In this document: positions 9,814 to 27,203 of the stretch, one piece after another
Layout: every line of letters starts with the position of its first letter
How positions within the stretch are numbered: the stretch's first letter is position 1
Origin: Methanothermobacter thermautotrophicus str. Delta H
GTDB taxonomy: Archaea > Methanobacteriota > Methanobacteria > Methanobacteriales > Methanothermobacteraceae
DNA: 32,000 nucleotides
Direction of reading: 5' to 3'
NCBI RefSeq assembly: GCF_000008645.1
Contig: NC_000916.1
Location: 30,001 to 62,000, forward strand
Translations under genes and position numbers: made by a program
The notes under the pieces: model-generated
The model's input: only the letters and a program-made list of their open reading frames with translations
Databases searched by the model: none
Told to the model about the DNA's origin: nothing

Positions 9814-10383
9814 CCCTTAACCCCCTACACACATTATATTGGTGGATAGTAGAATATAAAATCAGGTCTTGTGGAGATGCTGCTTCAGACCAGGCCCCCA
9901 TCCTGTTGTTTGCAACAGCCGTCAAAAAACCATATCCGGGGCTCTAAGATTACTAAAAAAATTCTGTCTGACCTATGAGGGCCCTAAACCCTGTGGCGTA
10001 GAAGAATAGGCCCTAAATTTTTTCATGGCTGGGGCTGCATACCATGATATGATCATTTCTTGATCATTCCAGACCCTACTTGAAGAGGAGGGTAGGGTTT
10101 CACTGTTTTACCTTCGTCATAGATCTATATAACGAATAAAACATGTGAAGGCAAGCAAGAAGAAAATTTTGATATTCAGTTCCTTCTTGGCAACCTAATA
10201 TCCTTCTATGTTCCCCTTTCGAGTATGCCTAGTGTAGGGGTTGATCCATTTCTTTCAGGTCATCCCGCAAAGAAGTAGAAGCTGAATAAAAACTTAAAAG
10301 GGGCTGCTATCTGAGGCTAAAAATGCCCTGAACCTCTTTATTTTGGTGTTGATTTGTTGGTTTGTTGTTGGGTTTAACGCTCC

Positions 10384-10662
10384 TCAAATATATGGCATAG
10401 AAAGGAGAAGTACACCTATTAGGGACATTATAACAAAAAGTGTTTCGAGCACACCTTTTTCCTCGCCTCTAAACACCTTCTTCGACAGAAAATAGATTAG
10501 CAAAAACATATTTCCCAGTAAAAGACACGTTAACAATATAATAGGTAGTTCAGGCCTAGTATGCAGTAAAGCCAACCTACTACACGTAACAGTAAAACCA
10601 ACAAAATTGTAAAACACGATAACGACCCCAAAAAAATAAAAAAGCTTAGATGTATGCTGCAT
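10384..10662 (-). CDS. Small membrane ORF, family 2 (putative immunity-like partner of cassette E2)
   Basis: 92 aa with 3 hydrophobic helices. Its ATG is embedded in the last codons of the upstream cassette (gATGCAGCATACATCTAA). It is a paralogue of 18605..18883. Confidence 0.6.
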   Translation of the reverse strand: MQHTSKLFYFFGVVIVFYNFVGFTVTCSRLALLHTRPELPIILLTCLLLGNMFLLIYFLSKKVFRGEEKGVLETLFVIMSLIGVLLLSMPYI

Positions 10663-11042
10663 CCTCCCACCTCAAACTACCATCAGGATTCTTCGGTATT
10701 TCAATATAGTGTATACAATGATCCTCACCAACATAACTTCTCAACTCATAACCATAAATCCAGGTACGATGAATCGAAATATACTTCCAATATTCTTGGG
10801 GAAGATAATGAGTCCGTATCCTTAAAATCAAATCACCTTCAGCCACTATCACACTTATAAAACCCAAAGGACCCATAACAGCAGTGACACCGGCAACAGT
10901 TGCAATATCTAATATACCATGGAAAACATCCTCTAGAATGCATGTTTGGTGTTCTATGATGAATTCTTTGATATCGTCTGTGATGTTTAGGAGGCCTGTG
11001 TAGGCTATTATTGTTGCATATGCTGCCATGTTGAGTCCTATG
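10640..11042. repeat. ~0.4-kb near-identical repeat (partner 18861-19263, offset 8221); weaker similarity continues down to ~10140/18400
   Basis: Identical side-frame ORFs 10654..10860 and 18875..19081. One K/E difference in the cassette protein. Confidence 0.8.
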
Positions 11043-11426
11043 AGGCTGGCCCTACATAATCGAAAAAGAGGGTTTAGGATGGAAAGGTACATGGAGGTTA
11101 CAAAGCCCAATATAAGCCTTCTTAGTACTATCATCTAAACCTTCAAGGTTTACTGTGCCATTACCATCCAAGAGCGAATCTAACTTTTCAGATATTATGG
11201 CTTGGCCAAGTTCCCGAGCCCATTCTGTCTGTTGGTGGTAGTAGCAGTATGCTCCCATGAAAGCATAGATCATGTCCCTTACTATCCCTGTTGCATGGTC
11301 TATGATGAGGTATCTTCCCTGCCCGTCACTGATAAGCGTGTAATTCTCGCTTTCGAGGATGTTTAGTGACCCGCCGTTGAGGAGTGTTAGGCCTATTCCT
11401 GTTGTGTGGAGGTTTTGATCCTGGGA
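10646..11426 (-). pseudogene. Orphan C-terminal cassette E2 (5'-truncated copy of the large-protein C-terminus, internally frameshifted)
   Basis: It covers ORFs 11052..11273 (MIYAFMGAYCYYHQQTEWARELG..) and 10646..11134 (..LIGLNMAAYATIIAY..GEDHCIHYIEIPKNPDGSLRWEDAAYI). An extra T near 11100-11110 shifts the frame. There is no signal peptide and no N-terminal domains. Confidence 0.7.
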
Positions 11427-12183
11427 TTTGGGTTTATGGTTGATTTTTTTTGGATGGTGAGTTCTTTCAGGGCTTTTTTGGCTTTTTTGTATTCTGGGTC
11501 TATTTTCAGGGCTTTTTCATAGCATTTTAGTGCTTCTTTGTGTTTGCCGAGTTTTTGTAGTGTTTTTCCTTGCATGTACCATAGTGTTTTGTTTTGGGGG
11601 GTTTAGTTTGAGGGCTTTCTTGTAGCATTTCAGGGATTCCTCTGGTTTTTTGAGGTCTTCTAGGATTATGCCTTTCCATTTCCATGCATCGGCGAATTCG
11701 GGGTTTATTTCAAGGGCTTTTTGAAAGCATTCCAGCGCATCCTTATATTTTCCAAGTTCTTCGAGGACTAGTCCTTTGTTGTTCCATGTTTTGTCGTCTT
11801 CTGGATCTATTTCCAGGGCTTTTTCATAGCATTCTAGTGCCTCCTCATATCTCCCAAGTTCACTGAGGACTACTCCTTTGTTGTTCCATGCTTCTGCAAG
11901 TTTGGGGTTTATCTGTAATGCTTTTTCATAGCATTCTAGTGACTCATCATATCTCCCAAGTTCATTGAAAACTAGTCCTTTGTTGTTCCAAGCTTTATCA
12001 TCTTGTGGATTTAATTGGAGAACTTTGTCATAACATTTTAATGCTTCTTCATATATCTTAAGGTTATGTAATGTTATTCCTTTAGTTCCCCAAGCTCTAT
12101 AATTTTTTGGATTTAGCTCTATGGCTTTTTCGAAACATTTTAGTGCCTTTTTGTATTTTTTAAGGTAAATTAGAACGGAGCCT
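11131..12183. repeat. ~1.05-kb direct repeat (partner 21040-22092, offset 9909)
   Basis: Identical side-frame ORFs 11393/21302 and 11684/21593. Lines compared by eye at both ends. Confidence 0.8.
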
Positions 12184-12235
12184 TCCCCTAGCCATCCAAT
12201 CCTTTATTTTCTTAAGGGGGTTCATATTCCAGCCT
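11393..12235 (-). pseudogene. TPR gene remnant (internal deletion, in-frame stop, 3' frameshift)
   Basis: 11131-12183 matches 21040-22092 (offset 9909). At 12184 the sequence jumps straight to the TPR 5' end (..ccatccaatcctttattttcttaagggggttcat) with a tag stop. It carries the same G6 run frameshift (11596-11601) as the copy at 21505-21510. Confidence 0.65.
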
Positions 12236-12345
12236 CTCTCAACTTCTTTTTCATGTAATCGTTGGGTCCTAGTATGCAAGTTTTTATCGTCTCATGATTC
12301 TGATAGGCATCCTATGCTTGCAGCGGAACCTATTATGGGTTGATT
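12236..12345 (-). pseudogene. Decayed 3' end of a type-2 (..NYLEKKLREAGG) C-terminal module
   Basis: ~110 nt resemble 22566-22680 and 14439-14550 by eye (agcctctctcaacttctttt..cctagtatgca..) but carry many substitutions and no open frame. Confidence 0.4.
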
Positions 12346-12384
12346 CTTTATTTATCTGTTAGTATAGGTTTACATAAGGTTTTT

Positions 12385-12642
12385 TCATGTCTTAAGGATT
12401 CTAATCGTAAGAATTGCGAGCATCATTAGCCCAAAAATTCTGATCGCCTCTTGATGGCGAATTATCCAATCTTCTTTTTTTCTGAAAAAATACAATAAAA
12501 CGAAAAGGAGCCCCACGACTAACCAGTCAGTCAACTCAACCTTCGGGCTGTTTAAATATAACAGTTCAAGGAAAAAGATTATGAAAGTAACCATAAAAAG
12601 TATATCAAATTTTCTTTCACCTTTTTCAGACCTTTCAATCAT
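12385..12642 (-). CDS. Small membrane ORF (putative immunity-like partner of cassette F)
   Basis: 85 aa with 2-3 hydrophobic helices. RBS GAGGGG lies in the 18-nt gap after the cassette F stop. Confidence 0.5.
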   Translation of the reverse strand: MIERSEKGERKFDILFMVTFIIFFLELLYLNSPKVELTDWLVVGLLFVLLYFFRKKEDWIIRHQEAIRIFGLMMLAILTIRILKT

Positions 12643-12660
12643 TACAACCCCTCTATTTAC

Positions 12661-13235
12661 CTAAATGTATATTGTTTCATTCTCTCTTAGCGTATCATCT
12701 GGATTTTTAGGAATCTCCTTGTAGTGTATACAATTATCCGCACCAATGTATGCTTCCAGTTTGTATCCATATATCGGGCCACGATGAAGGGATATATACT
12801 TCCAGTATTCCCTAGGTAGGTAATGATCCCTTATATTAAGAATCAAATCCCCTTCTGCAATAATACAAAAAACAAGGCTACAGTTGCCACAAAAGATCCT
12901 CCTTCTAACATAAAATAACAGCCACCAACCACACCTACTGCATCTAGAATATCCTTTGGGATGTATGTTTGATGTTCCACGATAAATTCTTTGATGCTAC
13001 CTGTAATGTTGTTGAGTTTGGAGTCTATGTAGGCTATTGTTGTTGCGTATGCTGCCATGTTAACTCTTATGAGGCCCTGACCCACCAGGCCATAACTGAT
13101 GATTTCCAAAGGTCATGGGATTGTGTGGGGCGGGTTGTATTGGGCTAATAAGGCCTCTTGAAGGCTTTTCTCGCGTTGTCCTTTAAGCCTTCAAAGGTTT
13201 GCTGTGCTGTTATCCTAAGAGTGACTTTAGCCTTT
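12661..13235 (-). pseudogene. Orphan C-terminal cassette F (decayed, several frameshifts)
   Basis: ORFs 12843..13109 and 12661..12846 join as ..AEGDLILNIRDHYLPREYWKYISLHRGPIYGYKLEAYIGADNCIHYKEIPKNPDD. Its 5' part is homologous to the copy-B region ERLKSLLDGNGTVNLEGL.. but is broken by stops. The motif residues are degenerate (ADNCIHY). Confidence 0.65.
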
Positions 13236-14438
13236 CATTTGGAGTTCTTTCAGGGCTTTTTTGGCTTTTTTGTATTCTGGGTCTATTTTCAGGGCTTTTT
13301 TGTAGGATTTTTTGGCTTTTTGGTGTTTTCCAAGTTTTTGTAGTGTTTTTCCTTGCATGTACCATAGTGTTTTGTCTTGGGGGTTTAGTTTGAGGGCTTT
13401 CTCGTAGCATTTCAGGGCTTCCTCTGGTTTTTTGAGGTCTTCCAGGATTATACCTTTCCATTCCCATGCATCGGCGAATTCTGGGTTTATTTCAAGGGCT
13501 TTTTCAAAACATTCCAGCGCCTCCTCATATTTTCCAAGTTTCCTGAGGAGTACTCCCTTGTTAGCCCATGTTTCGTCGTTTTCTAGGTTTATTTCTAAGG
13601 CTTTTTCATAGCATTCCAATGCCTCATCATATCTCTTAAGTTCTTCAAGGACTACTCCTTTGTTGTTCCATGCTTTTGCATTTTTTTGGTTTATTTCTAA
13701 GGCTTTTTCATAGCATTCTATTGCTTTTTCAGGTTTACCGATTGTGTCAAGGAGCGCTCCTTTGTTGTTCCATGTTCCATCGTCTTGTGGATCTATTTGT
13801 AGTGCCCTTCCATAGCATTCCAATGCCTCATCATATCTCTTAAGTTCTTCAAAAATTAGTGCTTTGTTGTACCATGCCTCTACGAATTCTGCGTTTATCT
13901 GTAATGCTTTTTCATAGCATTCCAATGCCTCCTCATATTTTCCGAGACTGCGTAATCCGTTACCTTTATTATACCATGCTTTTGCATTTTTTTGGTTTAT
14001 TTCTAAGGCTTTTTCATAGCATTCTATTGCTTTTTCAGGTTTACCGATTGTGTCAAGGAGCGCTCCTTTGTTGTTCCATGTTCCATCGTCTTGTGGATCT
14101 ATTTGTAGTGCCCTTTCATAGCATTCCAATGCCTCATCATATCTCTTAAGTTCTTTAAGGACTACTCCTTTGTTGTTCCATGCTTCTGCTAGTTTTGGAT
14201 TGTTTTTGAGGATTTTTTCATAACATTTTAAGGCTTTCTCTGGTCTTTTGAGTTTTAGTAGTGTCATTGCATTATAGTGCAAGATTTCCGGGTCGTTTGG
14301 ACTCGCCTTGAGGGCTTTCCTGAATTCTTTAAGAGCTTCTTTGTATTTTCCCTGTTTTAGGCTTGATCGGCCCCCGCTGAGGTGCCATCCAGCCTTTCCC
14401 CTGGCTATCCAATCCTTTATCTTCTTAAGGGGGTTCAT
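13227..14438 (-). CDS. TPR repeat protein (~11 TPR units), coupled to the upstream type-2 module
   Basis: 34-aa periodicity (..AWxNKGxxLxxLxRYDEALECYEKALxIxP..). ATGA start/stop overlap with 14435..15385. No catalytic domain. Confidence 0.8.
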   Translation of the reverse strand: MNPLKKIKDWIARGKAGWHLSGGRSSLKQGKYKEALKEFRKALKASPNDPEILHYNAMTLLKLKRPEKALKCYEKILKNNPKLAEAWNNKGVVLKELKRYDEALECYERALQIDPQDDGTWNNKGALLDTIGKPEKAIECYEKALEINQKNAKAWYNKGNGLRSLGKYEEALECYEKALQINAEFVEAWYNKALIFEELKRYDEALECYGRALQIDPQDDGTWNNKGALLDTIGKPEKAIECYEKALEINQKNAKAWNNKGVVLEELKRYDEALECYEKALEINLENDETWANKGVLLRKLGKYEEALECFEKALEINPEFADAWEWKGIILEDLKKPEEALKCYEKALKLNPQDKTLWYMQGKTLQKLGKHQKAKKSYKKALKIDPEYKKAKKALKELQMKG

Positions 14439-15385
14439 CCTCCAGCCTCTCTCAACTTCTTTTCTAGGTAGTTTTTGAATCCTAGTATGCAGGCTTCTAT
14501 TGTCTCACGATTCTCATAGGCTAATAGGCTTCCAATAGCCATCCCAGTGCCTATTACAGTACCTCCATGTTTTATGGCGCCCACGACATTCCCATCCTTT
14601 AAAGCCTCCTTGAACAGATCCCATTCATCCATCATGAGTTTACCTAAATTATTTATAGCCCTTCCTATATCGTCGGGATCGCCACCAACACCACCACTGC
14701 TAATCACCCTTAGAGTATCTACGGCTTCTCTATACTCATTTATCGCTTGACTCCATTCGTCAGACTGTCTTGATAGTATTTCAAGATAGTTTTGTATTGG
14801 TTGTGTGTCTCCTGTTAGTAGTGTGTAGGCGATGAATGTTGGCAGACCAGCGGGTGAGAGTAACATCATGGCATCTTCGATGTATGGGAGCCACTCAGGA
14901 TGTTCGATGAGGATATAAGCGACTATTGCAACAACTATTCCTATGCCAGCTGTCGCCGGCGCTGACAAGGCTCCTGCTTCGAGGATGGCGACTTCAGCTC
15001 CTCCTTCGAAGCCGACGACTTCAGCTCCTGAAACACCAGCAAATCCAATGAACTTCCACAAACCGGTCTCATTCAGTAGTTCTTTTGCGAGGTTGGCTGC
15101 CCATTCTGTCTGCAGGTGGCTGAAACAATATGCCCCCATAACATTCTTAAAGATATTGACATCCCTCACTATCCCTGTTGCAGTGTCGATGATCAGGTAG
15201 TCATTATCATAGTTTATTATGGTGTAGTTCCCAGCTTTTGTAATATTTAGTTTTTCTCCGTTCAGGAGCCTGTATGCTATGCTTGTGATCGCAGCACCTT
15301 CCATGATATCCCCTATATTGTCGAGGCTTCCATTGTATGGGAATAGGCGTTGCATTGAACTCTGAGGGGTTTGATGTCCCGACAA
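14435..15385 (-). CDS. Type-2 C-terminal module: junction block fused to a different Gly/Ala-rich hydrophobic C-terminus (likely start at ATG 15304)
   Basis: AITSIAYRLLNGEKLNITKAGNYTIINYDNDYLIIDTATGIVRDVNIFKNVMGAYCFSHLQTEWA aligns with the junction block of the 837/840-aa proteins. The rest (..ATAGIGIVVAIVAYILIEHPEWLPYIED..GGTVIGTGMAIGSLLAY..NYLEKKLREAGG) is unrelated to them. The listed start is TTG. ATG 15304 has TAGGGGAT 5 nt upstream. Confidence 0.6.
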   Translation of the reverse strand: MSGHQTPQSSMQRLFPYNGSLDNIGDIMEGAAITSIAYRLLNGEKLNITKAGNYTIINYDNDYLIIDTATGIVRDVNIFKNVMGAYCFSHLQTEWAANLAKELLNETGLWKFIGFAGVSGAEVVGFEGGAEVAILEAGALSAPATAGIGIVVAIVAYILIEHPEWLPYIEDAMMLLSPAGLPTFIAYTLLTGDTQPIQNYLEILSRQSDEWSQAINEYREAVDTLRVISSGGVGGDPDDIGRAINNLGKLMMDEWDLFKEALKDGNVVGAIKHGGTVIGTGMAIGSLLAYENRETIEACILGFKNYLEKKLREAGG

Positions 15386-15401
15386 TAATTAAATAGCCCT
15401 G

Positions 15402-15677
15402 TTATACCCCTGGAGATGCAATTAAACCCACTATAAGGAGCATTACCATCATCCATCTTATTTCATACTCTTTTTCCTTCAACTCGTAGTAGAGCCAGCA
15501 TAAAAGGAGAAGAGTGAACAAGCCTAAAGGGGCTGCTATTAGGGACAAAACATCACAATGATACTTAAGCGCAAGAATACATAGGAACATAACTATGCAG
15601 ATAAGAGGATAAGCCCTCTTATACCAAGATTCATAATCCAATAAGATCCCCTCCACTTTAGATATATACTGCTTCAT
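15402..15677 (-). CDS. Small membrane ORF, family 1 (DYES..EIRWM), putative immunity-like partner of large protein A (probable TTG start at 15641)
   Basis: 2-3 TM helices. GGAGGGG at 15648-15654 and TTG at 15641 reproduce the RBS/TTG arrangement of paralogues 20180..20425 and 23298..23534. It lies 16 nt after the protein A stop. Confidence 0.6.
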   Translation of the reverse strand: MKQYISKVEGILLDYESWYKRAYPLICIVMFLCILALKYHCDVLSLIAAPLGLFTLLLLCWLYYELKEKEYEIRWMMVMLLIVGLIASPGV

Positions 15678-18171
15678 CCCACCTCAAACTACCATCAGGA
15701 TTCTTCGGTATTTCAATATAGTGTATACAATGATCCTCACCAACATAACATCTCAACTCATAACCATCGTACCAGGAACGATGATACGATATATACTTCC
15801 AATACTCTTTTGGAAGATAATAATCTCTAAAGCTCAATATTTTATCACCAAACCACATACAAAACCCAATTGACCCTAATATCGCCCCAGCACCTCCTTT
15901 TGACACGTATCCAAAAACAGTAAGTAAAATATCTATAATGTCTTTTGGAATGTATGTTTGGTGTTCTATGATGAATTTTTTGATATCGTCTGTGATGTTT
16001 TGGAGGCTTGTGTAGGCTATTGTTGTTGCATATGCTGCCATGTTGAGTCCTATAAGTCCCTGACCCACAAGAGCATAATTGAGGATATCAACGAAAGCCA
16101 TTGGACCTTCCAGGGCAATGTACATGGAGATTACAAGGCCAATATAGGCCTTCTTGATACTATCATCTAAACCTTCAAGGTTTACTGTGCCATTACCATC
16201 CAAGAGCGAATCTAACTTTTCAGAGAATATTATGGCTTGGCCAAGTTCCCGGGCCCATTCTGTTTGTTGGTGGTAGTAGCAGTATGCTCCCATGAAAGCA
16301 TAGATCATGTCCCTTACTATCCCTGTTGCATGGTCTATGATGAGGTATCTTCCCTGCCCGTCACTGATAAGCGTGTAATTCCCGCTTTCGAGGATGTTTA
16401 GTGACCCGCCGTTGAGGAGTGTTAGGCCTATTCCTGTTGTGGGCGCGCTTGTGGGGTCTGATCCTGGGAAGAGGGCCTCCATCACATAGTATTCTATTGG
16501 ATTTATAGCTGATGTTCTCGCATAATTGAATGCTTTAATGTTTTCGGGTGTGCCTTCTGCTTTCACGGCCATGTTGTGGTTGCATTCGAGGCTTATCCAT
16601 GTCCCTGGGCTGTGGTCTCCTGCTGAGACCATCACTGGCATGGTCCTGGTCCATGTTACATTATAGCGCGTGGCTGCTTCTTCTGCGATGAGATCGTGGA
16701 GGTATATTACTTCAAGGCCTGTTAGGAATGTTCCGTGGGCTGCCTTTAATGGTCCGGGCTCGTATGTCCTGTTTAGCCACTTTTGTAATGTCTGGTTTGT
16801 TATCTTCCCTGTGGCGAGGGTGTAGGTTATGATGGCGTCGTAGTTGCTAGCCTCCCAGATGAGAGTGTCGTTTATTATGATATTGGGTCCTGTTTCTCCT
16901 GGTGGGTGTATGTATTGGCCGTTTGTGTAGAGTAGGAGGAGTGTTCTTGTTGATTTGTTCCCTGGGAATGTTATATTGGCTATTGTCACCTTTTCCTCGC
17001 CGGGATACTCCACACTGACCTGTAAAGGGTCTATGCACTTGTTATAGTTTGTGAGTATGAATATCTTTTCTGCCTGGGTTAAATTGAAGTTGTTGAGATA
17101 TTCATTCACTTGAGGTTCTGCTCCGAGTTTTGTGTAAATTTCTATGAGTCTGTTCAGGCCAGCTATGACTTGCCAGACTATTTCTCTTTGACTCTGGCTG
17201 TTAGCCTGGTAGAATGGGTTAGTGACCTCGGCTAGTTTGTATGCTATGCCATCCTCCACAAGGAATATTGTTTCATTGAATAGGCCCGAAGATATAGCCC
17301 CTATACTAATCCATTTAACCGTGTCATTGAGCGGAATTTTAAATGTTAAATTTAGGGGCTTCCCAGAGGATGTTGCCGTGGAATTAACATGGACCGTTGC
17401 AAGCATAACCTCCAATGTAATAGTCTTCGTGTCTGTTATGCCATAGCCTTGGACTGTTAGGGTTACTTTGTAGGTTCCTGGTTTGTAGGCGTGTACTGGA
17501 TTCTTCTGGGTGCTTGTGCTTTGGTCTCCGAAGTCCCATTTGTAGTATTGTATTGTCCCTGTACTTTTATCCTGGAATTGGACATTATAGCCTTGTATTG
17601 TGTAGGTGTAGTCTGCCCTTGGCCTTACTATAATTCCACCCTTACCTGTAACATATTCTACTGTTACATAGTTTGGTAGTCTTCCTGTGCTGTTGTAGAA
17701 GTTTATTATCCTTGCATTGGCATATATTAGGCTTTCTGGGCGGACTTGTCCAATGGCTGTGCTGGCATAATTCGGCGACCTCCCATAGGATTCCATGAAA
17801 GCCTTAACATTCTTTGCCACCTGCAAGTATCCTGCTTTTTGGAGTGTTCCTGTTCCTGTTCCACTTGGACTGGGCGGGGAGGCCATACTATTGAATGACA
17901 AGCCAACTCTCCTACCCTGATCGAGGTTTATGATGGTTGAGGATGAGGCGTAGAGGTAGTCGTCTGCCGACACATTCTTACCGTTAATCACAACCTGTGA
18001 TGGTATTTTTTCATGTTGTGCAGTGTAGTTTCCGATCAGCTTTGAAACGTCACAAATCTCATCATAGGATAAACTCACAGCTGAAGAACTGCCCAAAAGA
18101 CAGAAAAAGGACAGGATCGCCAGAAAAAACAACAACCTCCTCACAGCCACCACCATAATATGATAACACAT
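15658..18171 (-). CDS. Large secreted protein A: signal peptide, 2 pseudomurein-binding-like repeats, PKD domain, unassigned ~300-aa domain, junction block, variable hydrophobic C-terminus with a conserved His/Cys end module (polymorphic-toxin-like)
   Basis: 837-aa ORF. IGNYTAQHEKIPSQVVINGKNVSADDYLYASSSTI and VKAFMESYGRSPNYASTAIGQVRPESLIYANARII resemble PMBR repeats. YKWDFGDQSTSTQKNPVHAYKPGTYKVTLTV is a classic PKD signature. Residues 23-640 are identical to protein B. The start may be ATG 18156 (MVVAVRRLL). Confidence 0.7.
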   Translation of the reverse strand: MCYHIMVVAVRRLLFFLAILSFFCLLGSSSAVSLSYDEICDVSKLIGNYTAQHEKIPSQVVINGKNVSADDYLYASSSTIINLDQGRRVGLSFNSMASPPSPSGTGTGTLQKAGYLQVAKNVKAFMESYGRSPNYASTAIGQVRPESLIYANARIINFYNSTGRLPNYVTVEYVTGKGGIIVRPRADYTYTIQGYNVQFQDKSTGTIQYYKWDFGDQSTSTQKNPVHAYKPGTYKVTLTVQGYGITDTKTITLEVMLATVHVNSTATSSGKPLNLTFKIPLNDTVKWISIGAISSGLFNETIFLVEDGIAYKLAEVTNPFYQANSQSQREIVWQVIAGLNRLIEIYTKLGAEPQVNEYLNNFNLTQAEKIFILTNYNKCIDPLQVSVEYPGEEKVTIANITFPGNKSTRTLLLLYTNGQYIHPPGETGPNIIINDTLIWEASNYDAIITYTLATGKITNQTLQKWLNRTYEPGPLKAAHGTFLTGLEVIYLHDLIAEEAATRYNVTWTRTMPVMVSAGDHSPGTWISLECNHNMAVKAEGTPENIKAFNYARTSAINPIEYYVMEALFPGSDPTSAPTTGIGLTLLNGGSLNILESGNYTLISDGQGRYLIIDHATGIVRDMIYAFMGAYCYYHQQTEWARELGQAIIFSEKLDSLLDGNGTVNLEGLDDSIKKAYIGLVISMYIALEGPMAFVDILNYALVGQGLIGLNMAAYATTIAYTSLQNITDDIKKFIIEHQTYIPKDIIDILLTVFGYVSKGGAGAILGSIGFCMWFGDKILSFRDYYLPKEYWKYISYHRSWYDGYELRCYVGEDHCIHYIEIPKNPDGSLRWDEAVYI
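16252..18105. repeat. Long direct repeat, copy 1 (partner 24753-26606, offset 8501), apparently 100% identical
   Basis: The encoded proteins are identical. Three pairs of alternative-frame ORFs are also identical with the same offset (16847/25348, 17222/25723, 17491/25992). The boundary lines were compared by eye. Confidence 0.85.
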
Positions 18172-19274: not shown

Positions 19275-19404
19275 AAGAGCATAATTGAGGATATCCTGGA
19301 ATGTAAATCCACATAGACTTCAACATTATCATGAGTTGTGATATTTTTTATAGGTTTTTTCTAAGATTTTCCAGTTTTTTTGGGCGTGGGGGGCTGCTTT
19401 TCTT

Positions 19405-19647: not shown

Positions 19648-19660
19648 ATCATCCTCCTAA

Positions 19661-20164: not shown

Positions 20165-20179
20165 CTAAACCTTCAAGGT

Positions 20180-20425: not shown

Positions 20426-20464
20426 GAAAAGACACCTCCTATATCATCCACTTAGACTACCCCA

Positions 20465-20554
20465 TTAGGGTTCGTTTGAGAATTTTAGCCCCATATAGTT
20501 GCCGCGGATCGTAAAATACGCCAAAAACTGAAAAAGCTTAGATGTATACTGCAT
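20465..20554 (-). pseudogene. Truncated family-2 membrane ORF remnant after cassette C
   Basis: MQYTSKLFQFL.. starts inside the last codons of cassette C exactly as in E1/E2, then diverges and stops after 29 codons. Confidence 0.45.
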
Positions 20555-21182
20555 CCTCCCACCTCAAACTACCATCAGGATTCTTCGGTATTTCAATATA
20601 GTGTATACAATGATCCTCACCAACATAACTTCTCAACTCATAACCATAAATCCAGGTACGATGAATCGAAATATACTTCCAATATTCTTGGGGAAGATAA
20701 TGATCTCTAAATGTAAGTATGCCATCACCTATCCGCATACACCATCCAATTGGTTGAAATATTTCACCACCATACCTTACTAACACATATGCCAAAACCT
20801 GGATCAAACAGTGAGCAGTATCTTCTGAGATGTATGTTTGGTGTTCTATGATGAATTTTTTGATATCGTCTGTGATGTTTAGGAGGCTTGTGTAGGCTAT
20901 TATTGTTGCATATGCTGCCATGTTGAGTCCTATAAATCCCTCCACAAGAGCATAATTGAGGATATCAACGAAAGCCATTGGACCTTCCAGGGCAATGTAC
21001 ATGGAGATTACAAGGCCAATATAAGCCTTCTTGATACTATCATCTAAACCTTCAAGGTTTACTGTGCCATTACCATCCAAGAGCGAATCTAACTTTTCAG
21101 ATATTATGGCTTGGCCAAGTTCCCGAGCCCATTCTGTCTGTTGGTGGTAGTAGCAGTATGCTCCCATGAAAGCATAGATCAT
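20538..21182 (-). CDS. Orphan C-terminal cassette C (homology extends 5' to ~21335; no N-terminal domains)
   Basis: The in-frame upstream extension reads TTGIGLTLLNGGSLNILESENYTLISDGQGRYLIIDHATGIVRD-MIYAFMG... The unique core is SEDTAHCLIQVLAYVLVRYGGEIFQPIGWCMRIGDGILTFRDHYLP. The end module is identical to that of E1/E2. Confidence 0.7.
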   Translation of the reverse strand: MIYAFMGAYCYYHQQTEWARELGQAIISEKLDSLLDGNGTVNLEGLDDSIKKAYIGLVISMYIALEGPMAFVDILNYALVEGFIGLNMAAYATIIAYTSLLNITDDIKKFIIEHQTYISEDTAHCLIQVLAYVLVRYGGEIFQPIGWCMRIGDGILTFRDHYLPQEYWKYISIHRTWIYGYELRSYVGEDHCIHYIEIPKNPDGSLRWEDAVYI

Positions 21183-21425
21183 GTCCCTTACTATCCCTGT
21201 TGCATGGTCTATGATGAGGTATCTTCCCTGCCCGTCACTGATAAGCGTGTAATTCTCGCTTTCGAGGATGTTTAGTGACCCGCCGTTGAGGAGTGTTAGG
21301 CCTATTCCTGTTGTGTGGAGGTTTTGATCCTGGGATTTGGGTTTATGGTTGATTTTTTTTGGATGGTGAGTTCTTTCAGGGCTTTTTTGGCTTTTTTGTA
21401 TTCTGGGTCTATTTTCAGGGCTTTT

Positions 21426-22565
21426 TCATAGCATTTTAGTGCTTCTTTGTGTTTGCCGAGTTTTTGTAGTGTTTTTCCTTGCATGTACCATAGTGTTTTG
21501 TTTTGGGGGGTTTAGTTTGAGGGCTTTCTTGTAGCATTTCAGGGATTCCTCTGGTTTTTTGAGGTCTTCTAGGATTATGCCTTTCCATTTCCATGCATCG
21601 GCGAATTCGGGGTTTATTTCAAGGGCTTTTTGAAAGCATTCCAGCGCATCCTTATATTTTCCAAGTTCTTCGAGGACTAGTCCTTTGTTGTTCCATGTTT
21701 TGTCGTCTTCTGGATCTATTTCCAGGGCTTTTTCATAGCATTCTAGTGCCTCCTCATATCTCCCAAGTTCACTGAGGACTACTCCTTTGTTGTTCCATGC
21801 TTCTGCAAGTTTGGGGTTTATCTGTAATGCTTTTTCATAGCATTCTAGTGACTCATCATATCTCCCAAGTTCATTGAAAACTAGTCCTTTGTTGTTCCAA
21901 GCTTTATCATCTTGTGGATTTAATTGGAGAACTTTGTCATAACATTTTAATGCTTCTTCATATATCTTAAGGTTATGTAATGTTATTCCTTTAGTTCCCC
22001 AAGCTCTATAATTTTTTGGATTTAGCTCTATGGCTTTTTCGAAACATTTTAGTGCCTTTTTGTATTTTTTAAGGTAAATTAGAACGGAGCCTTTATTGTA
22101 CCATGCATCTGCAAGTTTGGGGTTTATCTGTAATGCTTTTTCATAGCATTCTAGTGCCTCATCATATCTCCCAAGTTCTTTGAGGACTAGTGCTTTATTG
22201 TTCCATGCTCCTGCATACTTTGGATTTATTTTTAGTGCTTTTTCATAGCATTCTAGTGCCTCATCATATCTCCCAAGTTCTTTGAGGACTAGTCCTTTGT
22301 TGTTCCATGCTTCTGCAAGTTTTGGATTGTTTTTGAGGATTTTTTCATAGCATTCTAAGGCTTTCTCTGGTCTTTTGAGTTTTAGTAGTGTTATTGCATT
22401 GTAGTGGAGGATTTCTGGGTTGTTTGGTCTTGCTTTGAGGGCTTTCCTGAATTCTTTGAGGGCTTCTTTGTATTTTCCCTGTTTTAGGCTTGATCGGCCC
22501 CCAGCAAGGTGCCATCCAGCCTTTCCCTCGGCTATCCAATCCTTTATTTTCTTAAGGGGGTTCAT
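21426..22565 (-). CDS. TPR repeat protein, frameshifted near its 3' end (last TPR units continue in ORF 21302..21484)
   Basis: 379 aa of TPR units. At the G6 run 21505-21510 the frame slips (..KLNPPKQNTMVH.. instead of ..KLNPQ.KTLWYMQGKTLQKLGKH..). ATGA overlap with 22562..23164. Confidence 0.75.
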   Translation of the reverse strand: MNPLKKIKDWIAEGKAGWHLAGGRSSLKQGKYKEALKEFRKALKARPNNPEILHYNAITLLKLKRPEKALECYEKILKNNPKLAEAWNNKGLVLKELGRYDEALECYEKALKINPKYAGAWNNKALVLKELGRYDEALECYEKALQINPKLADAWYNKGSVLIYLKKYKKALKCFEKAIELNPKNYRAWGTKGITLHNLKIYEEALKCYDKVLQLNPQDDKAWNNKGLVFNELGRYDESLECYEKALQINPKLAEAWNNKGVVLSELGRYEEALECYEKALEIDPEDDKTWNNKGLVLEELGKYKDALECFQKALEINPEFADAWKWKGIILEDLKKPEESLKCYKKALKLNPPKQNTMVHARKNTTKTRQTQRSTKML

Positions 22566-23164
22566 CCTCCAGCCTCTCTCAACTTCTTTTCTAGGTAGTT
22601 TTTGAATCCTAGTATGCAGGCTTCTATTGCTTCACGATTCTCATAGGCCAATAGGCTTCCAATAGCCATCCCAGTGCCTATTATAGTGCCTCCATGTTTT
22701 ATGGCGCCCACAACATCCCCATCCTTTAAAGCCTCCTTGAACAGATCCCATTCATCCATCATGAGTTTACCTAAATTATTTATAGCCCTTCCTATATCAT
22801 CAGGGTCTGGGGATGATGGGACATTCACTTGAGGAAGCTCCCCCCAATTTGTAATTCTTTTCTTCCATTCCTTGTCAGGTATTATTTTTGCTAATTCTTG
22901 TATTGGTTGTGTGTCTCCTGTTAGTAGTGTGTAGGTGATGAATGTTGGCAAACCACCAGGTGAAAGTAGCATGCTCATCATCATAGCATCTTCGATGTAT
23001 GGTAGCCATTCAGGATGCTCCATGATAATAATTAGAGCCAGGGTAATAACCAAGCCTAAACCTAGTGTTTCTGGGGCTGAAAGCACACCCAATTCAAGTG
23101 CAGCTGCTTCGGCTGTTGAAACACCAGCAACACCAATAAATTTCCACCAACCACTCCAATTCAA
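22562..23164 (-). CDS. Type-2 C-terminal module, 5'-truncated and frameshifted copy
   Basis: Homologous, with several substitutions and small indels, to the C-terminal ~200 aa of 14435..15385 (..IEHPEWLPYIEDAMM..NYLEKKLREAGG). Upstream, MGAYY(fs)HQQTELAKKLGNEILNWSGWWKF shows a 1-nt deletion, and homology ends at ~23225. Confidence 0.6.
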   Translation of the reverse strand: MNWSGWWKFIGVAGVSTAEAAALELGVLSAPETLGLGLVITLALIIIMEHPEWLPYIEDAMMMSMLLSPGGLPTFITYTLLTGDTQPIQELAKIIPDKEWKKRITNWGELPQVNVPSSPDPDDIGRAINNLGKLMMDEWDLFKEALKDGDVVGAIKHGGTIIGTGMAIGSLLAYENREAIEACILGFKNYLEKKLREAGG

Positions 23165-23297
23165 AATTTCATTCCCAAGTTTTTTGGCTAGTTCTGTTTG
23201 TTGGTGTAGTATGCTCCCATAATATTCCTGTTTTATGTCTATTAAATGAAAAAAACCTTAACATCCCCCTTCATCTTGGCAACATGATAACTCCTCT

Positions 23298-23534
23298 TTA
23301 TGTTCCGAATATAATTAATGCAAGGATTATGGCAATCATCCATCTTATTTCTTCTTTTTTTCCCTTCAACTCATCCACGAAGAAGTGCAACCAGAATAAA
23401 AGGAAATAAATAAACACGGTTAAAAGGGCCGCTATTGGAACCAAACCATTAAAATGCCTAATCCCAACAAAATATAAAATAATATCAACACAAATAAGAA
23501 AATAAACCTTCCCAAACAAAGATTCATAATCCAA
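23298..23534 (-). CDS. Small membrane ORF, family 1 (TTG start)
   Basis: 78 aa. DYESLFG..KEEIRWMIAI. It lies 15 nt after the stub stop at 23550-23552. Confidence 0.55.
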   Translation of the reverse strand: MDYESLFGKVYFLICVDIILYFVGIRHFNGLVPIAALLTVFIYFLLFWLHFFVDELKGKKEEIRWMIAIILALIIFGT

Positions 23535-23549
23535 AAAAGACCCTTCTCA

Positions 23550-23640
23550 CTAACAATATACTGCTTCATCCCACCGTAGAGTACCATCAGGGTTCTTCGG
23601 CATTCCATGTTGTATGCAATGGGATCCTTCATACTGAAGT
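23550..23640 (-). pseudogene. Stub of a cassette 3' end (last ~28 codons only)
   Basis: It reads YEGSHCIQHGMPKNPDGTLRWDEAVYC*, compared with YVGEDHCIHYIEIPKNPDGTLRWDEAVYI*. It abuts the stop of 23629..24045. Confidence 0.6.
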
Positions 23641-24045
23641 ATTGGATTCTTTGATTAAAAGGGTTGCGACTATCAGAGCAAAAATACCTATTAATATTCT
23701 GTCTAAGATTATCATTGTTAAAGCAAAGATGTATGCTAGTATTATGGAGGATTTGGCTAACCATTCCATCTTAAGTTTCCCTATCTTATTTAAGAAGATG
23801 AAAGAGATTATGAGGAATGTGAAAGCCCCCACATCCCCCCCAAGGAAAAAAGATCCAATGGCAAGCAACACACCACCTATAACCCCATATAAGAGAAAAT
23901 CCAACCTCTTTTCCCGTTCTCCTAAACCTCCTAATATCAGTAATATACAACCTATAAATACTAACATAAAAAGTATACAGCCTATGATTATTCTTAAACC
24001 TAACATAGAACCACCCATCCTTTTTCTCCAATCACCCCACCACAA
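23629..24045 (-). CDS. Multi-TM small protein downstream of protein B (candidate immunity-like ORF; likely start at ATG 24018)
   Basis: 4 hydrophobic helices with Gly-rich loops and no paralogue in the window. It is ~130 nt from the protein B stop, so less tightly coupled than the other pairs. Confidence 0.45.
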   Translation of the reverse strand: MWWGDWRKRMGGSMLGLRIIIGCILFMLVFIGCILLILGGLGEREKRLDFLLYGVIGGVLLAIGSFFLGGDVGAFTFLIISFIFLNKIGKLKMEWLAKSSIILAYIFALTMIILDRILIGIFALIVATLLIKESNTSV

Positions 24046-24149
24046 ATCACCTCAAAGCCAAAACCAAACACAACTTAGTAGATCTGCCACTGAAACCAAC
24101 ACCTAGATAATCAGCACATAAAGCTTATCAATCCAAACAAACCACCACC

Positions 24150-26672
24150 TTAAATATATACTGCTTCATCCCACCGTAGAGTACCATCAGGGTCCTTCGG
24201 TATTTCAATATAGTGTATACAATGATCCTCACCAACATAAGCCCTAAGCTCATAACCATGAGCCCATGTACGATGATATGCAATATATTTCCAATATTCC
24301 TCTGGGAGATAATGATCCCTAAAATCGAGTATCCCATTGCCTATAGCCATACACAAACCAACTGGCTGAAGTATTACCCCACCACCAGATTTCGATAATA
24401 CATATATTACTGCTGGAAGCATATATTCAACAAAATCATTTGAAATGTATGTTTGATGTTCCACGATAAATTCTTTGATGCTGCCTGTAATGTTGTTGAG
24501 TTTGGAGTTTATGTAGGCTATTGTTGTTGCGTATGCTGCTATGTTAACTCCTATGAGGCCCTGACCCACCAAGCCATAACTGATGATTTCAACAAAGGTC
24601 ATGGGGTTATGTAGGGCGAGTCGCATTGAAACTATAAGACCCATGAAGGCTTTTCCCACACTATCCCTTAAACCTTCAAGATTTACTGTGCCATTACCAT
24701 CCAAGAGTGACTTTAACCTTTCAGAGGACATTATGGTTCGGCCAAGTTCTTGGGCCCATTCTGTTTGTTGGTGGTAGTAGCAGTATGCTCCCATGAAAGC
24801 ATAGATCATGTCCCTTACTATCCCTGTTGCATGGTCTATGATGAGGTATCTTCCCTGCCCGTCACTGATAAGCGTGTAATTCCCGCTTTCGAGGATGTTT
24901 AGTGACCCGCCGTTGAGGAGTGTTAGGCCTATTCCTGTTGTGGGCGCGCTTGTGGGGTCTGATCCTGGGAAGAGGGCCTCCATCACATAGTATTCTATTG
25001 GATTTATAGCTGATGTTCTCGCATAATTGAATGCTTTAATGTTTTCGGGTGTGCCTTCTGCTTTCACGGCCATGTTGTGGTTGCATTCGAGGCTTATCCA
25101 TGTCCCTGGGCTGTGGTCTCCTGCTGAGACCATCACTGGCATGGTCCTGGTCCATGTTACATTATAGCGCGTGGCTGCTTCTTCTGCGATGAGATCGTGG
25201 AGGTATATTACTTCAAGGCCTGTTAGGAATGTTCCGTGGGCTGCCTTTAATGGTCCGGGCTCGTATGTCCTGTTTAGCCACTTTTGTAATGTCTGGTTTG
25301 TTATCTTCCCTGTGGCGAGGGTGTAGGTTATGATGGCGTCGTAGTTGCTAGCCTCCCAGATGAGAGTGTCGTTTATTATGATATTGGGTCCTGTTTCTCC
25401 TGGTGGGTGTATGTATTGGCCGTTTGTGTAGAGTAGGAGGAGTGTTCTTGTTGATTTGTTCCCTGGGAATGTTATATTGGCTATTGTCACCTTTTCCTCG
25501 CCGGGATACTCCACACTGACCTGTAAAGGGTCTATGCACTTGTTATAGTTTGTGAGTATGAATATCTTTTCTGCCTGGGTTAAATTGAAGTTGTTGAGAT
25601 ATTCATTCACTTGAGGTTCTGCTCCGAGTTTTGTGTAAATTTCTATGAGTCTGTTCAGGCCAGCTATGACTTGCCAGACTATTTCTCTTTGACTCTGGCT
25701 GTTAGCCTGGTAGAATGGGTTAGTGACCTCGGCTAGTTTGTATGCTATGCCATCCTCCACAAGGAATATTGTTTCATTGAATAGGCCCGAAGATATAGCC
25801 CCTATACTAATCCATTTAACCGTGTCATTGAGCGGAATTTTAAATGTTAAATTTAGGGGCTTCCCAGAGGATGTTGCCGTGGAATTAACATGGACCGTTG
25901 CAAGCATAACCTCCAATGTAATAGTCTTCGTGTCTGTTATGCCATAGCCTTGGACTGTTAGGGTTACTTTGTAGGTTCCTGGTTTGTAGGCGTGTACTGG
26001 ATTCTTCTGGGTGCTTGTGCTTTGGTCTCCGAAGTCCCATTTGTAGTATTGTATTGTCCCTGTACTTTTATCCTGGAATTGGACATTATAGCCTTGTATT
26101 GTGTAGGTGTAGTCTGCCCTTGGCCTTACTATAATTCCACCCTTACCTGTAACATATTCTACTGTTACATAGTTTGGTAGTCTTCCTGTGCTGTTGTAGA
26201 AGTTTATTATCCTTGCATTGGCATATATTAGGCTTTCTGGGCGGACTTGTCCAATGGCTGTGCTGGCATAATTCGGCGACCTCCCATAGGATTCCATGAA
26301 AGCCTTAACATTCTTTGCCACCTGCAAGTATCCTGCTTTTTGGAGTGTTCCTGTTCCTGTTCCACTTGGACTGGGCGGGGAGGCCATACTATTGAATGAC
26401 AAGCCAACTCTCCTACCCTGATCGAGGTTTATGATGGTTGAGGATGAGGCGTAGAGGTAGTCGTCTGCCGACACATTCTTACCGTTAATCACAACCTGTG
26501 ATGGTATTTTTTCATGTTGTGCAGTGTAGTTTCCGATCAGCTTTGAAACGTCACAAATCTCATCATAGGATAAACTCACAGCTGAAGAACTGCCCAAAAG
26601 ACAGAAACAAGAGAGGATTGCCAGAAGAAACAATAACCTCCTCACAGCCACCACCATAATATGATAACACAT
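24150..26672 (-). CDS. Large secreted protein B: same N-terminal 640 aa as protein A, different C-terminal core (polymorphic-toxin-like)
   Basis: 840-aa ORF. From ..TEWA it diverges: QELGRTIMSSERLKSLL..SNDFVEYMLPAVIYVLSKSGGGVILQPVGLCMAIGNGILDFRDHYLPEEYWKYIAYHRTWAHGYELRAYVGEDHCIHYIEIPKDPDGTLRWDEAVYI. Confidence 0.7.
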   Translation of the reverse strand: MCYHIMVVAVRRLLFLLAILSCFCLLGSSSAVSLSYDEICDVSKLIGNYTAQHEKIPSQVVINGKNVSADDYLYASSSTIINLDQGRRVGLSFNSMASPPSPSGTGTGTLQKAGYLQVAKNVKAFMESYGRSPNYASTAIGQVRPESLIYANARIINFYNSTGRLPNYVTVEYVTGKGGIIVRPRADYTYTIQGYNVQFQDKSTGTIQYYKWDFGDQSTSTQKNPVHAYKPGTYKVTLTVQGYGITDTKTITLEVMLATVHVNSTATSSGKPLNLTFKIPLNDTVKWISIGAISSGLFNETIFLVEDGIAYKLAEVTNPFYQANSQSQREIVWQVIAGLNRLIEIYTKLGAEPQVNEYLNNFNLTQAEKIFILTNYNKCIDPLQVSVEYPGEEKVTIANITFPGNKSTRTLLLLYTNGQYIHPPGETGPNIIINDTLIWEASNYDAIITYTLATGKITNQTLQKWLNRTYEPGPLKAAHGTFLTGLEVIYLHDLIAEEAATRYNVTWTRTMPVMVSAGDHSPGTWISLECNHNMAVKAEGTPENIKAFNYARTSAINPIEYYVMEALFPGSDPTSAPTTGIGLTLLNGGSLNILESGNYTLISDGQGRYLIIDHATGIVRDMIYAFMGAYCYYHQQTEWAQELGRTIMSSERLKSLLDGNGTVNLEGLRDSVGKAFMGLIVSMRLALHNPMTFVEIISYGLVGQGLIGVNIAAYATTIAYINSKLNNITGSIKEFIVEHQTYISNDFVEYMLPAVIYVLSKSGGGVILQPVGLCMAIGNGILDFRDHYLPEEYWKYIAYHRTWAHGYELRAYVGEDHCIHYIEIPKDPDGTLRWDEAVYI
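24753..26606. repeat. Long direct repeat, copy 2 (partner 16252-18105)
   Basis: See copy 1. Confidence 0.85.
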
Positions 26673-26724
26673 TATAGTATAAAAAGATTACTATCTCTTT
26701 TAGGGACCGAAAAATATAAATATG
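26673..26724 (-). promoter_or_regulatory. Conserved promoter region of protein B
   Basis: Nearly identical to 18172-18222, with the same TATA-like elements. Confidence 0.4.
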
Positions 26725-27203
26725 AGGATTTTGGGGGTTGTTTTATTTGTAATGTTGCATGATCATGTTCTCCCTTCATTTTTTTCTGGTGTTCCTTAAC
26801 ATAATTGCCTCTGCTAATCTGTACGTTGTTGTTCCATTTTTTTACCTGCAGCCCCTGTAACTGTAATACCGACTCCAGAAACAGCTCACCCCAAGGATTC
26901 CAACCTAAATAGCTTCCAGATCATTAAATACTCCTAAAGCTATAACACCAAAGCCCAGCAGGTTGAAAAAGTGAAATAATTTTTCATATCTAAAAAAATC
27001 AAAGTTTTGATGTTATGAGGTATCATTCCTATAAATAGGCACAACCACTCCAAATTGCTAATATGCCTCTTCAAGTGTGTAGCCCAACCACCAGGCAACC
27101 ATGCAAGCATCAGAAACAAACCTATTATACAACCCCAACTAAAGTGCCGCCAATTACATATTTTCCAACTTTATGCCAAATTAAGTTTATATATGTCAAA
27201 AGT

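Follow-up and report, generated by a model that had tools for sequence, protein, structure and literature searches.

Exchange of C-terminal modules at a fixed junction in pseudomurein-binding surface proteins of Methanothermobacter: a candidate archaeal analogue of bacterial polymorphic toxin systems

Hardly any work has addressed antagonism or self-recognition in archaea. The variable C-termini (CTs) of the bacterial protein WapA are tRNases, and the large adhesin-like proteins (ALPs) of methanogens are usually discussed as adhesins. Polymorphic toxin systems of archaea have been predicted computationally as a long first gene followed by downstream homologues of its C-terminus and adjacent immunity genes (Makarova et al. 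2019, quoted in PMC8416519), and the quoting paper, from 2021, describes them as predictions without experimental characterization (PMC8416519). It also describes VARTIG of Thermococcales, a large secreted protein with Ig domains in which recombination between strains makes the C-terminal part hypervariable (PMC8416519). Co-varying membrane proteins are encoded downstream of VARTIG, no identifiable toxin is reported, and a 'self vs nonself' hypothesis is put forward there (PMC8416519). Here we describe a locus of Methanothermobacter thermautotrophicus str. Delta H in which the C-termini of two wall-binding surface proteins, together with their downstream partner genes, appear to be exchanged at a fixed junction. 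The locus lies in a stretch of 32,000 nucleotides, referred to as the window, to which all coordinates refer.

The locus is built around two large head genes on the minus strand, A (15658-18171, 837 amino acids) and B (24150-26672, 840 amino acids). Both exactly match deposited Delta H entries (AAB84579.1, O26179 for A and AAB84593.1, O26190 for B) whose annotation of 1997 reads 'surface protease related protein' and which newer records call 'pseudomurein-binding repeat-containing protein'. A literature search for these genes and accessions, for this family and for polymorphic toxins of methanogens found no description, a prior listing in Makarova et al. 2019 being possible. Both proteins share one architecture. 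The N-terminus, MVVAVRRLLFFLAILSFFCLLGSSSA, has a hydrophobic core (apparent free energy, dGapp, of -1.0 as a Hessa-scale sum) and is predicted to be a Sec-type signal peptide, the N-terminal trafficking signal of the protein. It is followed by three pseudomurein-binding repeats (PMBR; Pfam E=1e-26) and one PKD domain (E=7.5e-14), which a first, sequence-only reading of this DNA had already proposed. Then come a central domain, a junction with the sequence GAYCYYHQQTEWA (16252-16446 in A, 24753-24947 in B) and a C-terminal module that we call CT1 (variant A, 15661-16251; variant B, 24153-24752). Pfam gave no match in the central ~320 residues, in the C-termini or in the small open reading frames (ORFs) of the locus.

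The proposal that the two heads are near-identical up to residue 640 was borne out by BLASTP and by DNA alignment. A and B have 771/840 identities (92% overall), differ before residue 641 only at residues 16 and 22, and diverge directly past the end of the junction (...YYHQQTEWA). In the DNA, six mismatches in the signal-peptide codons (18107-18133) are followed by ~1.85 kb of 100% identity, from about 18106 to about 16250; identity then falls to 58-89% from the next 100-nt window past the junction, and the regions upstream of the two start codons are unrelated. The divergence past the junction holds, but the ends of A and B are not unrelated domains; they are homologous variants, about 65% identical, that contain a hypervariable block of about 40 codons. 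The truly distinct C-terminus in the window is a second type of module, CT2, which in Delta H occurs as orphans behind the heads.

C-terminal replacement at the TEWA codons in related genomes had been named as one of the points on which the proposal would stand or fall. Such replacement was found in three comparisons, A with B, Delta H with strain THM-2 and Delta H with the metagenome contig L005, and in each of them the breakpoint (16243-16266 or 24742-24767) lies within about 25 nt of these codons. THM-2, a complete genome, encodes a head (P0004) with about 71% protein and about 75% DNA identity to B and a C-terminus identical to that of B. Between Delta H and THM-2, DNA identity is 56-87% per 100 nt in the head, rises to 99-100% at about 24767, that is at the TEWA codons, and holds this level over 1.5 kb or more, across the CT1 of B and the downstream elements TM138, stub 1 and fam1_78. 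Contig L005 matches the window at 99.5% identity from 31886 to 24742, past which its head continues into a type-2 module, CT2b.

Further heads carry modules that are orphans in Delta H. The type-2 module sits on full-length heads in P0005, P0006 and P0007, the last two being divergent heads on a 210-kb contig of a metagenome-assembled genome and on a 218-kb contig; a 96%-identical head in L009 carries a variant of the type-2 module CT2a; and the head P0003 ends in the same frameshifted sequence as the Delta H orphans D and E2. Since the heads in P0003, P0005-P0007, L005 and L009 carry them, modules found as orphans in Delta H form the C-termini of heads elsewhere. Near-identical heads (at least 96%) thus bear CT1_A, CT1_B, CT2b, a CT2a variant or a truncated E-type end, and divergent heads bear CT2a or CT2b. 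These alignments indicate that the C-terminus is exchanged by homologous recombination at a fixed junction, a repeat of ~190 nt at 98-100% identity, together with the gene or genes immediately downstream. A match to the junction alignment from Actinotalea (L004) was spurious.

The downstream genes follow the C-termini closely. Modules were typed in seven loci and in nine metagenome loci. In the 15 Methanothermobacter loci typed, each CT type was found with one fixed downstream partner, with 0 exceptions. CT1_A is followed by fam1_91, CT1_B by TM138 (in the window, L001, L002 and L013), CT1_D by fam2like_80, CT1_E by fam2_92 and CT1_F by TM85; CT2a and CT2c are followed by a long TPR protein and CT2b by a short one. 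Genes of CT and partner overlap by 4-20 nt, which suggests translational coupling. These overlaps are as the sequence-only reading had described them; its statement that a small ORF follows within 0-40 nt fails for TM138, which starts 104 nt downstream of B. Where a CT has decayed to a stub, the fam1 ORF behind it is intact. With breakpoints on the junction, type-2 modules on heads elsewhere and CT-partner linkage without exception, the likeness to the gene grammar of CdiA, Rhs and WapA loci with their orphan CT-immunity modules, from which the proposal had started, is upheld.

Seven orphan cassettes and two stubs lie downstream of the heads in the window, all on the minus strand. They were checked by tblastn with module queries and by three-frame translation, which placed orphans C, D, E1, E2 and F and stub 1 at or near the coordinates first given for them. 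Stub 2 (20446-20485) is real as well, although it is too degenerate for tblastn and visible in the DNA alignment only. The chain behind B begins with TM138 (23629-24045), the partner of CT1_B, which has three strongly hydrophobic helices (minimum dGapp -6.2). Stub 1 (23556-23621), the final ~22 codons of a deleted CT1 (…PKNPDGTLRWDEAVY), is followed by fam1_78 (23298-23534), an intact small transmembrane (TM) ORF and thus an orphan partner gene. The type-2 orphan CT2c (22562-23164, 200 residues) begins about 10 residues past the junction position and overlaps by 4 nt with the gene of a TPR protein (21302-22565; ORFs 21426-22565 and 21302-21484), whose 3' end is frameshifted relative to a 403-residue paralogue. 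Orphan C (20538-21335; tblastn span 20541-21314) lacks the signal peptide and the N-terminal domains and is intact from the complete junction (21126-21314, 98%) to the stop codon, with its first ATG at MIYAFMGAY. Its CT1 is a mosaic, near-identical to that of A up to the variable block (dS 0.03), inside which the divergence is ancient (dS 0.9). Then come a truncated fam2 start of 28 codons with the degenerate stub 2 of a CT1 end (20426-20540), the small TM ORF fam1_81 behind stub 2 (20180-20425), orphan D (19661-20216; tblastn 19664-20216), a CT1 variant deposited as AAB84585.1, and its partner, a fam2-like TM ORF of 80 residues (19405-19647). Orphan E1 (18867-19307; tblastn 18870-19307), a CT1 variant E without junction, and the 3-TM ORF fam2_92b (18605-18883), with an overlap of 17 nt, close the chain.

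Behind A, the TM ORF fam1_91 (15402-15677), partner of CT1_A, overlaps the head by 20 nt. The type-2 orphan CT2a (14435-15385, 316 residues) has its own diverged junction (15098-15295, 57%), which ends in ...LQTEWA, and overlaps by 4 nt with the gene of a TPR protein of 403 residues and 11 repeats (13227-14438). Orphan F (12661-13239; tblastn 12664-13239), a CT1 variant split into two ORFs by a frameshift, is followed by its partner TM85 (12385-12642) and by remnants (11393-12308) of a type-2 CT end (12228-12308) and a TPR gene. The last cassette is orphan E2 (10646-11426; tblastn 10649-11405), with a junction (11217-11405, 98%) and a CT1 variant E, together with the 3-TM ORF fam2_92a (10384-10662), again with an overlap of 17 nt. 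In orphans D and E2 the reading frame shifts by one at ...KKAYIGL relative to the heads, yet each has an ATG of its own (MIVLRRLILGF...), at 20164 in D. The TPR genes (11569-12174, 13249-14262 and 21478-22491) are made of 102-nt tandem units, of which 20 copies were detected, and the copy number varies between strains, giving proteins of 403, 379 and 355 residues.

All CT1 variants align throughout, with a conserved first stretch of ~100 residues, the hypervariable ~40 residues and a tail of ~57 residues with the motif …RDxYLPxEYWKY…YVGEDHCIHYIEIPKNPDG…. Purifying selection acts on the tail, with an omega of 0.06-0.2 between distant pairs. Hydrophobicity was scored on the position-independent Hessa scale, summed over 19-residue windows. 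In the CT1 of the two heads every window lies above +3 kcal/mol (minima +4.8 for A and +5.3 for B), and the small partner ORFs reach dGapp values of -1.2 to -6.2. Because of these values the C-termini are predicted not to be standard stop-transfer anchors and the small partners to be genuine TM proteins; we down-weighted a plain C-terminal TM anchor on the same grounds. Across the wider family described below, 6 of the 91 CTs of 60 residues or more have a window below 0 dGapp, and some CTs are fully soluble. The glycine-zipper motif [GAS]xxxGxxx[GAS] occurs 0.82 times per 100 residues in family CTs vs 0.20 in the upstream parts; its count of 133 compares with 87 +/- 10.6 in composition-preserving shuffles (maximum 114 in 200 shuffles). 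An AlphaFold model of residues 255-837 of A, built with 16 close sequences, had a mean pLDDT of 50.9, below 50 over most of the CT. All CT1 variants conserve an N-x-T sequon (LQNITDD, LLNITDD or LNNITGS; window ~15960-15990 in A, with equivalents in B-F) in the loop that joins helical segments two and three. N-glycosylation is possible there and would, if it takes place, put this loop of CT1 outside the cell.

A second system of similar design, headed by a C39-peptidase-like protein, occupies 27.2-30.5 kb, also on the minus strand. The island, which was first thought to end at 26725, was thus drawn too short and reaches about 30.5 kb. The head (29620-30524), predicted to be secreted, is split into two ORFs. 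ORF 30246-30524 holds the signal peptide and the catalytic-Cys motif NYTCGPAAL and is in another frame than ORF 29620-30189. The same split is called in strain EMTCatA1 (L001) and in L005, the three copies being about 99% identical and not independent, and either a pseudogene or a programmed frameshift would account for it. Pfam recognizes Peptidase_C39 (PF03412, E=6.6e-17, profile positions 47-132); the ABC-peptidase models of NCBIfam match the peptidase part only, far below their cut-offs, and no ABC gene was found near the head among the window ORFs. A block of ~35 nt encoding LSTEEMQxIxGK in the head, whose junction LSTEEMQNIRGK lies at 29803-29820, returns at the start of two orphan CT genes. 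The membrane ORF tm151 (29128-29583) stands directly behind the head. The first orphan, orf90 (28795-29067), encodes the junction LSTEEMQKIIGK and a cationic Trp/Gly-rich peptide and is followed by the polytopic membrane ORF tm122 (28390-28758). The second, orf75 (27581-27808), with homology from about 27820, ~12 nt upstream of its ATG, has the same junction and a peptide of the same kind and overlaps by 19 nt with the polytopic membrane ORF tm131 (27204-27599), a homologue of tm122. The locus thus repeats the design of head, junction, orphan and partner on a small scale and with a bacteriocin-like flavour. The C-terminus of the C39 protein (29626-29757) consists of a hydrophobic helix and RDKYVPRKYWKYCAYH…YLGRDHCIHYVEY and is homologous to the CT1 tail, so this tail module is common to two kinds of head. 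Conserved His/Cys/His residues in the CT1-like tail might bind metal.

We lean, with somewhat better than even confidence, towards reading the whole as a Sec-exported, wall-binding, recombination-driven polymorphic effector/immunity locus, a functional analogue in archaea of the polymorphic toxin systems of bacteria. We favour it because partners persist beside deleted CTs, because the CTs are not anchors and are rich in glycine-zipper motifs, because the partners are membrane proteins, because one CT module is common to two kinds of head and because the neighbouring locus is bacteriocin-like. By analogy, the architecture suggests that the CTs would be toxic, that the partners would protect and that the protein would reach other cells. 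CT1 and most family CTs, being glycine-zipper-rich, might act on the membrane of neighbouring pseudomurein-walled methanogens and CT2 inside their cells; the PMBR repeats could hold the protein on the wall of the producer or target the wall of the neighbour; and the adjacent small membrane or TPR protein would neutralize the cognate module in the producer and its kin. Displaced modules accumulate behind the head as promoter-less or frameshifted orphans, with partner genes staying intact, and the C39-headed mini-system follows the same logic with small bacteriocin-like peptides.

Several points weigh against this reading. No delivery or translocation machinery beyond Sec is evident, and a TPR protein is an unusual choice for immunity. 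Neither in the window CTs nor in 49 diverse family CTs does Pfam recognize a toxin domain, in line with the earlier statement that no known toxin fold could be recognized, and PDB sequence searches with CT1 and with a central-domain profile gave nothing significant. Homologous CT1 variants with a shared tail under purifying selection would also fit a structural or signalling module; synonymous sites in the variable block are saturated (dS about 1-2.3), and dN/dS there is not clearly above 1. The version of the Hessa scale used here is crude, being position-independent. Common descent explains why many of the linked CT-partner blocks are identical, and the linkage counts are therefore not independent. 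Finally, the junction is a near-identical repeat of ~190 nt, and the joins of head and CT on the short metagenome contigs L005, L009 and P0003 could for this reason be assembly chimeras, a problem that does not touch the cases within Delta H, in THM-2 or on the long contigs.

The sole Pfam near-match among the 49 CTs was a sub-threshold transglutaminase-like one. It concerns the soluble C-terminal ~130 residues of P0206 from Methanobacterium petrolearium, with a weak match to the transglutaminase core (E=0.003, below the Pfam cut-off). As the endoisopeptidases that cut pseudomurein are themselves transglutaminase-like, this C-terminus could be a wall-degrading effector.

The explanation that survives best beside an effector/immunity locus, though we think it unlikely, is a non-lethal system for self or kin recognition or for adhesion specificity, in which the variable block and its cognate membrane partner are determinants of identity and exchange diversifies that identity. 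IdsD/IdsE of Proteus would be one analogue, and the 'self vs nonself' hypothesis for VARTIG (PMC8416519) another. Architecture, recombination and co-variation of CT and partner fit such a system as well as they fit toxins. The missing toxin domain, a variable block that is a short helical segment (about 40 residues) beside a conserved tail, and heads that are wall-binding or adhesin-like (PMBR, PKD or beta-helix) also speak for it, as does VARTIG, with the same layout, co-varying membrane proteins and no toxin (PMC8416519). The arrays of partners kept without a CT, that is stubs with intact fam1 ORFs, are however typical of protection and serve no obvious need otherwise; the adjacent C39 locus with its bacteriocin-like peptides points to antagonism; and enrichment of glycine zippers is typical of membrane-perturbing peptides.

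Slightly less probable again is an ordinary family of adhesin-like surface proteins in which the CT is a membrane anchor or cytoplasmic tail that works with a small membrane subunit or TPR adaptor, and in which the orphans are decaying leftovers of tandem duplication or gene conversion with no role in conflict. Nearly all CTs have at least one hydrophobic segment by the Kyte-Doolittle scale, a tail-inside topology is plausible (three helices, NIT sequon in a loop), the CT1 tail is under purifying selection and common to an unrelated secreted protein, several orphans are frameshifted and, here too, the lack of a toxin domain fits. On the Hessa scale, however, the CT1 segments of the heads are far from insertion-competent (+4.8, +5.3), and most family CTs are marginal and some soluble. 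Moreover, the decay of duplicates leaves unexplained why the N-terminal 640 residues were lost in every case and the CT-partner pairs kept, why breakpoints fall on one junction in independent comparisons and why a head with about 75% DNA and about 71% protein identity carries a CT block that is 100% identical. We regard as very improbable a virus-directed surface-variation or decoy system, with the wall-bound head as phage receptor or sensor, CT and partner as an abortive-infection-type membrane switch and phage pressure driving exchange, since, for all that the island is variable, horizontally exchanged, low in GC and rich in surface proteins and its TPR proteins match generic TPR models in PADLOC, it is the C-terminus that varies while the exposed N-terminal domains are 100% identical between A and B, and PADLOC and PHROGs gave no specific match, the TPR matches being to generic repeats.

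The central domain and junction extend well beyond Delta H. An exhaustive HMMER search with residues 255-837 of A returned 208 cluster representatives, 61 of them below 1e-30, from Methanothermobacter, Methanobacterium and Methanobrevibacter; the named members are from Methanobacterium petrolearium and Methanobrevibacter. The family includes proteins of 1,000-2,400 residues with beta-helix/NosD, Big or PMBR-like N-termini. Homology typically stops a few residues past the junction, which 105 sequences reach, and the 91 CTs of 60 residues or more differ widely from one another. The junction motif, …GAYC[YF]x2-3QTEWA in the heads, generalizes to [GA]YC[YF]x2-3..T[ED]xA in the family. Gene order is also similar: the Methanobacterium locus L018 has a head, a two-TM ORF of 95 residues and an orphan in which part of the central domain precedes the junction and a new C-terminus (13059-13970); the Methanobrevibacter locus L019 has a head with a CT2-like end, a TPR protein, two TM ORFs of 96 residues and another TPR protein; and in L008 a polytopic membrane protein and then a fragment of the central domain (12115-12375) come after the head. 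The central-domain fragments downstream of heads in L008 and L018 argue for orphan formation beyond Methanothermobacter.

Unlike the CT, the central domain was modelled with confidence. AlphaFold2 gave a mean pLDDT of 86.7 and a pTM of 0.87 for residues 255-643 of A (18 diverse sequences), with an N-terminal beta-sandwich followed by mixed alpha/beta parts, and a fold search of this model against the PDB returned no match. In the model the last strand ends near residue 369, a low-confidence loop (372-375) comes before the invariant Cys377 (Cys631 of A), and the start of a helix falls at ...QQTEWA, so the recombination junction is predicted to coincide with a domain linker. The invariant Cys might, speculatively, mark a processing site. 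Both the junction motif and the preceding domain appear to be new, the latter without a Pfam or fold match. Tentatively, and with rather less than even confidence, we propose that the central domain and GAYC[YF]..QTEWA form an unrecognized 'pre-effector' module, and that this module defines a superfamily of polymorphic effectors, exported by Sec and binding to the wall, throughout Methanobacteriales.

The island itself is low in GC, with 0.35-0.45 across 10-32 kb vs 0.51-0.56 in the first 4 kb of the window. Positions 18388-32000 are collinear with strain EMTCatA1 at 99.0% identity, and the left flank (6325-9270) is just 77-79% identical to that strain; together with the drop in GC, this marks a sharp boundary of recombination or horizontal gene transfer near 9.3-10.1 kb. 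Unit 1, that is head A with its chain (~8.2 kb, about 10.1-18.4 kb), is missing in EMTCatA1. Because a direct repeat of the E-fam2 cassette bounds it (10109-11041 and 18388-19262), unit 1 was probably inserted or duplicated through recombination between E cassettes. Repeat families within the island are long, with stretches of as much as 300 nt that are 99% identical, and other genomes contain the same modules, so the repeat array is not a product of chance. In THM-2, in a M. marburgensis strain and on a JGI contig, related islands occupy different chromosomal sites. No tRNA gene was found in the 32-kb window, and searches with PADLOC and PHROGs gave no specific defence or phage match; together with NCBIfam they returned generic C39 and TPR matches only. 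Just past the C39 cluster, a Cys-rich DUF2769 protein (31443-31754, Pfam E=9.4e-7) keeps its position in EMTCatA1 and L005.

If this pre-effector proposal is true, many 'adhesin-like proteins' of Methanobrevibacter, Methanobacterium and Methanothermobacter, including those of gut and rumen, would be inter-archaeal weapons or identity tags, whose membrane-active C-termini are shuffled between strains with cognate membrane or TPR immunity genes by junction-directed recombination. Because large surface proteins of Methanobacterium and Methanobrevibacter have the same junction, the abundant ALPs of gut, rumen and bioreactor methanogens might be read anew; strain competition in biomethanation communities could also become easier to explain. 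The locus supplies, at the level of a model, a confidently predicted domain without known fold relatives. As a case for experiments in a model methanogen it is clean and testable: the two heads share one body but differ in their ends, the partners are defined and the breakpoints are mapped within about 25 nt. A shuttle-vector system for heterologous gene expression in Delta H is reported (PMC8609365).

How does the locus compare with described systems? Secretion signal, alternative C-termini, replacement at a junction, a co-varying downstream gene and orphan cassettes, all part of the general definition of polymorphic toxin systems (Zhang/Aravind 2012), are present. YD repeats, a two-partner secretion (TPS) partner and a VENN motif were looked for and are absent, so the locus is an analogue, not a member, of the WapA/WapI and CdiA/Rhs families. 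By analogy of function it stands closest to WapA/WapI and to the orphan arrays of CdiA/Rhs, and its layout seems nearest to WapA. Like WapA/WapI of Bacillus subtilis, it combines a Sec signal, N-terminal wall-binding repeats, a long extracellular body, a variable CT and a cognate gene downstream. Unlike WapA, the heads have neither Rhs/YD repeats nor a PxxxxDPxGL motif (Pfam found PMBR and PKD only, with no RHS/YD match in A or B), no enzyme is recognizable among the CTs, the wall ligand is pseudomurein and the host is an archaeon. With CdiA/CdiI and Rhs it shares a pre-CT junction, replacement of CT and immunity gene there and displaced orphan pairs that keep junction homology and lack start signals. 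It differs from contact-dependent inhibition and Rhs systems in having no TPS partner (there is no TPS gene in the 32-kb window), filamentous haemagglutinin repeats, VENN motif, type VI secretion system or Rhs cage. Glycine-zipper-rich, marginally hydrophobic CTs beside small polytopic membrane proteins resemble the membrane-targeting effectors CdiA-CT EC93, Tse4, Tse5-CT and TspA/TsaI, to which no sequence relationship was detected. The C39 mini-system resembles class II bacteriocin loci in its C39 domain, its small cationic Gly/Trp-rich peptides and its adjacent polytopic membrane ORFs; unlike there, the C39 domain is a stand-alone secreted protein and not the N-terminus of an ABC exporter, an LSTEEMQ junction takes the place of the double-glycine leader, and the gene is frameshifted.

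Among archaea, the ALPs of Methanobrevibacter and Methanobacterium are related in the literal sense: the family members there are large beta-helix, Big or PKD ALPs with the central domain and the junction. In the ALP literature we found no description of a shared junction with swappable CT-partner cassettes. The aggregation protein MTCT_1020 of strain CaT2, considered as a relative, belongs to an unrelated DUF11 family. The predicted archaeal polymorphic toxin systems have the same long first gene, downstream C-terminal homologues and adjacent partner genes; DNases and RNases are given as their commonest toxin moieties (PMC8416519), and none were found here. VARTIG is the closest archaeal analogue. 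Both are archaeal and combine a hypervariable C-terminus with co-varying membrane proteins and no toxin, and both face the same competing hypotheses (PMC8416519). Protein families and lineage differ, and the variable part is an Ig domain in VARTIG and a helical, glycine-rich module past a sharp junction in Methanothermobacter, where, unlike in VARTIG, arrays of orphans and stubs line up behind the heads.

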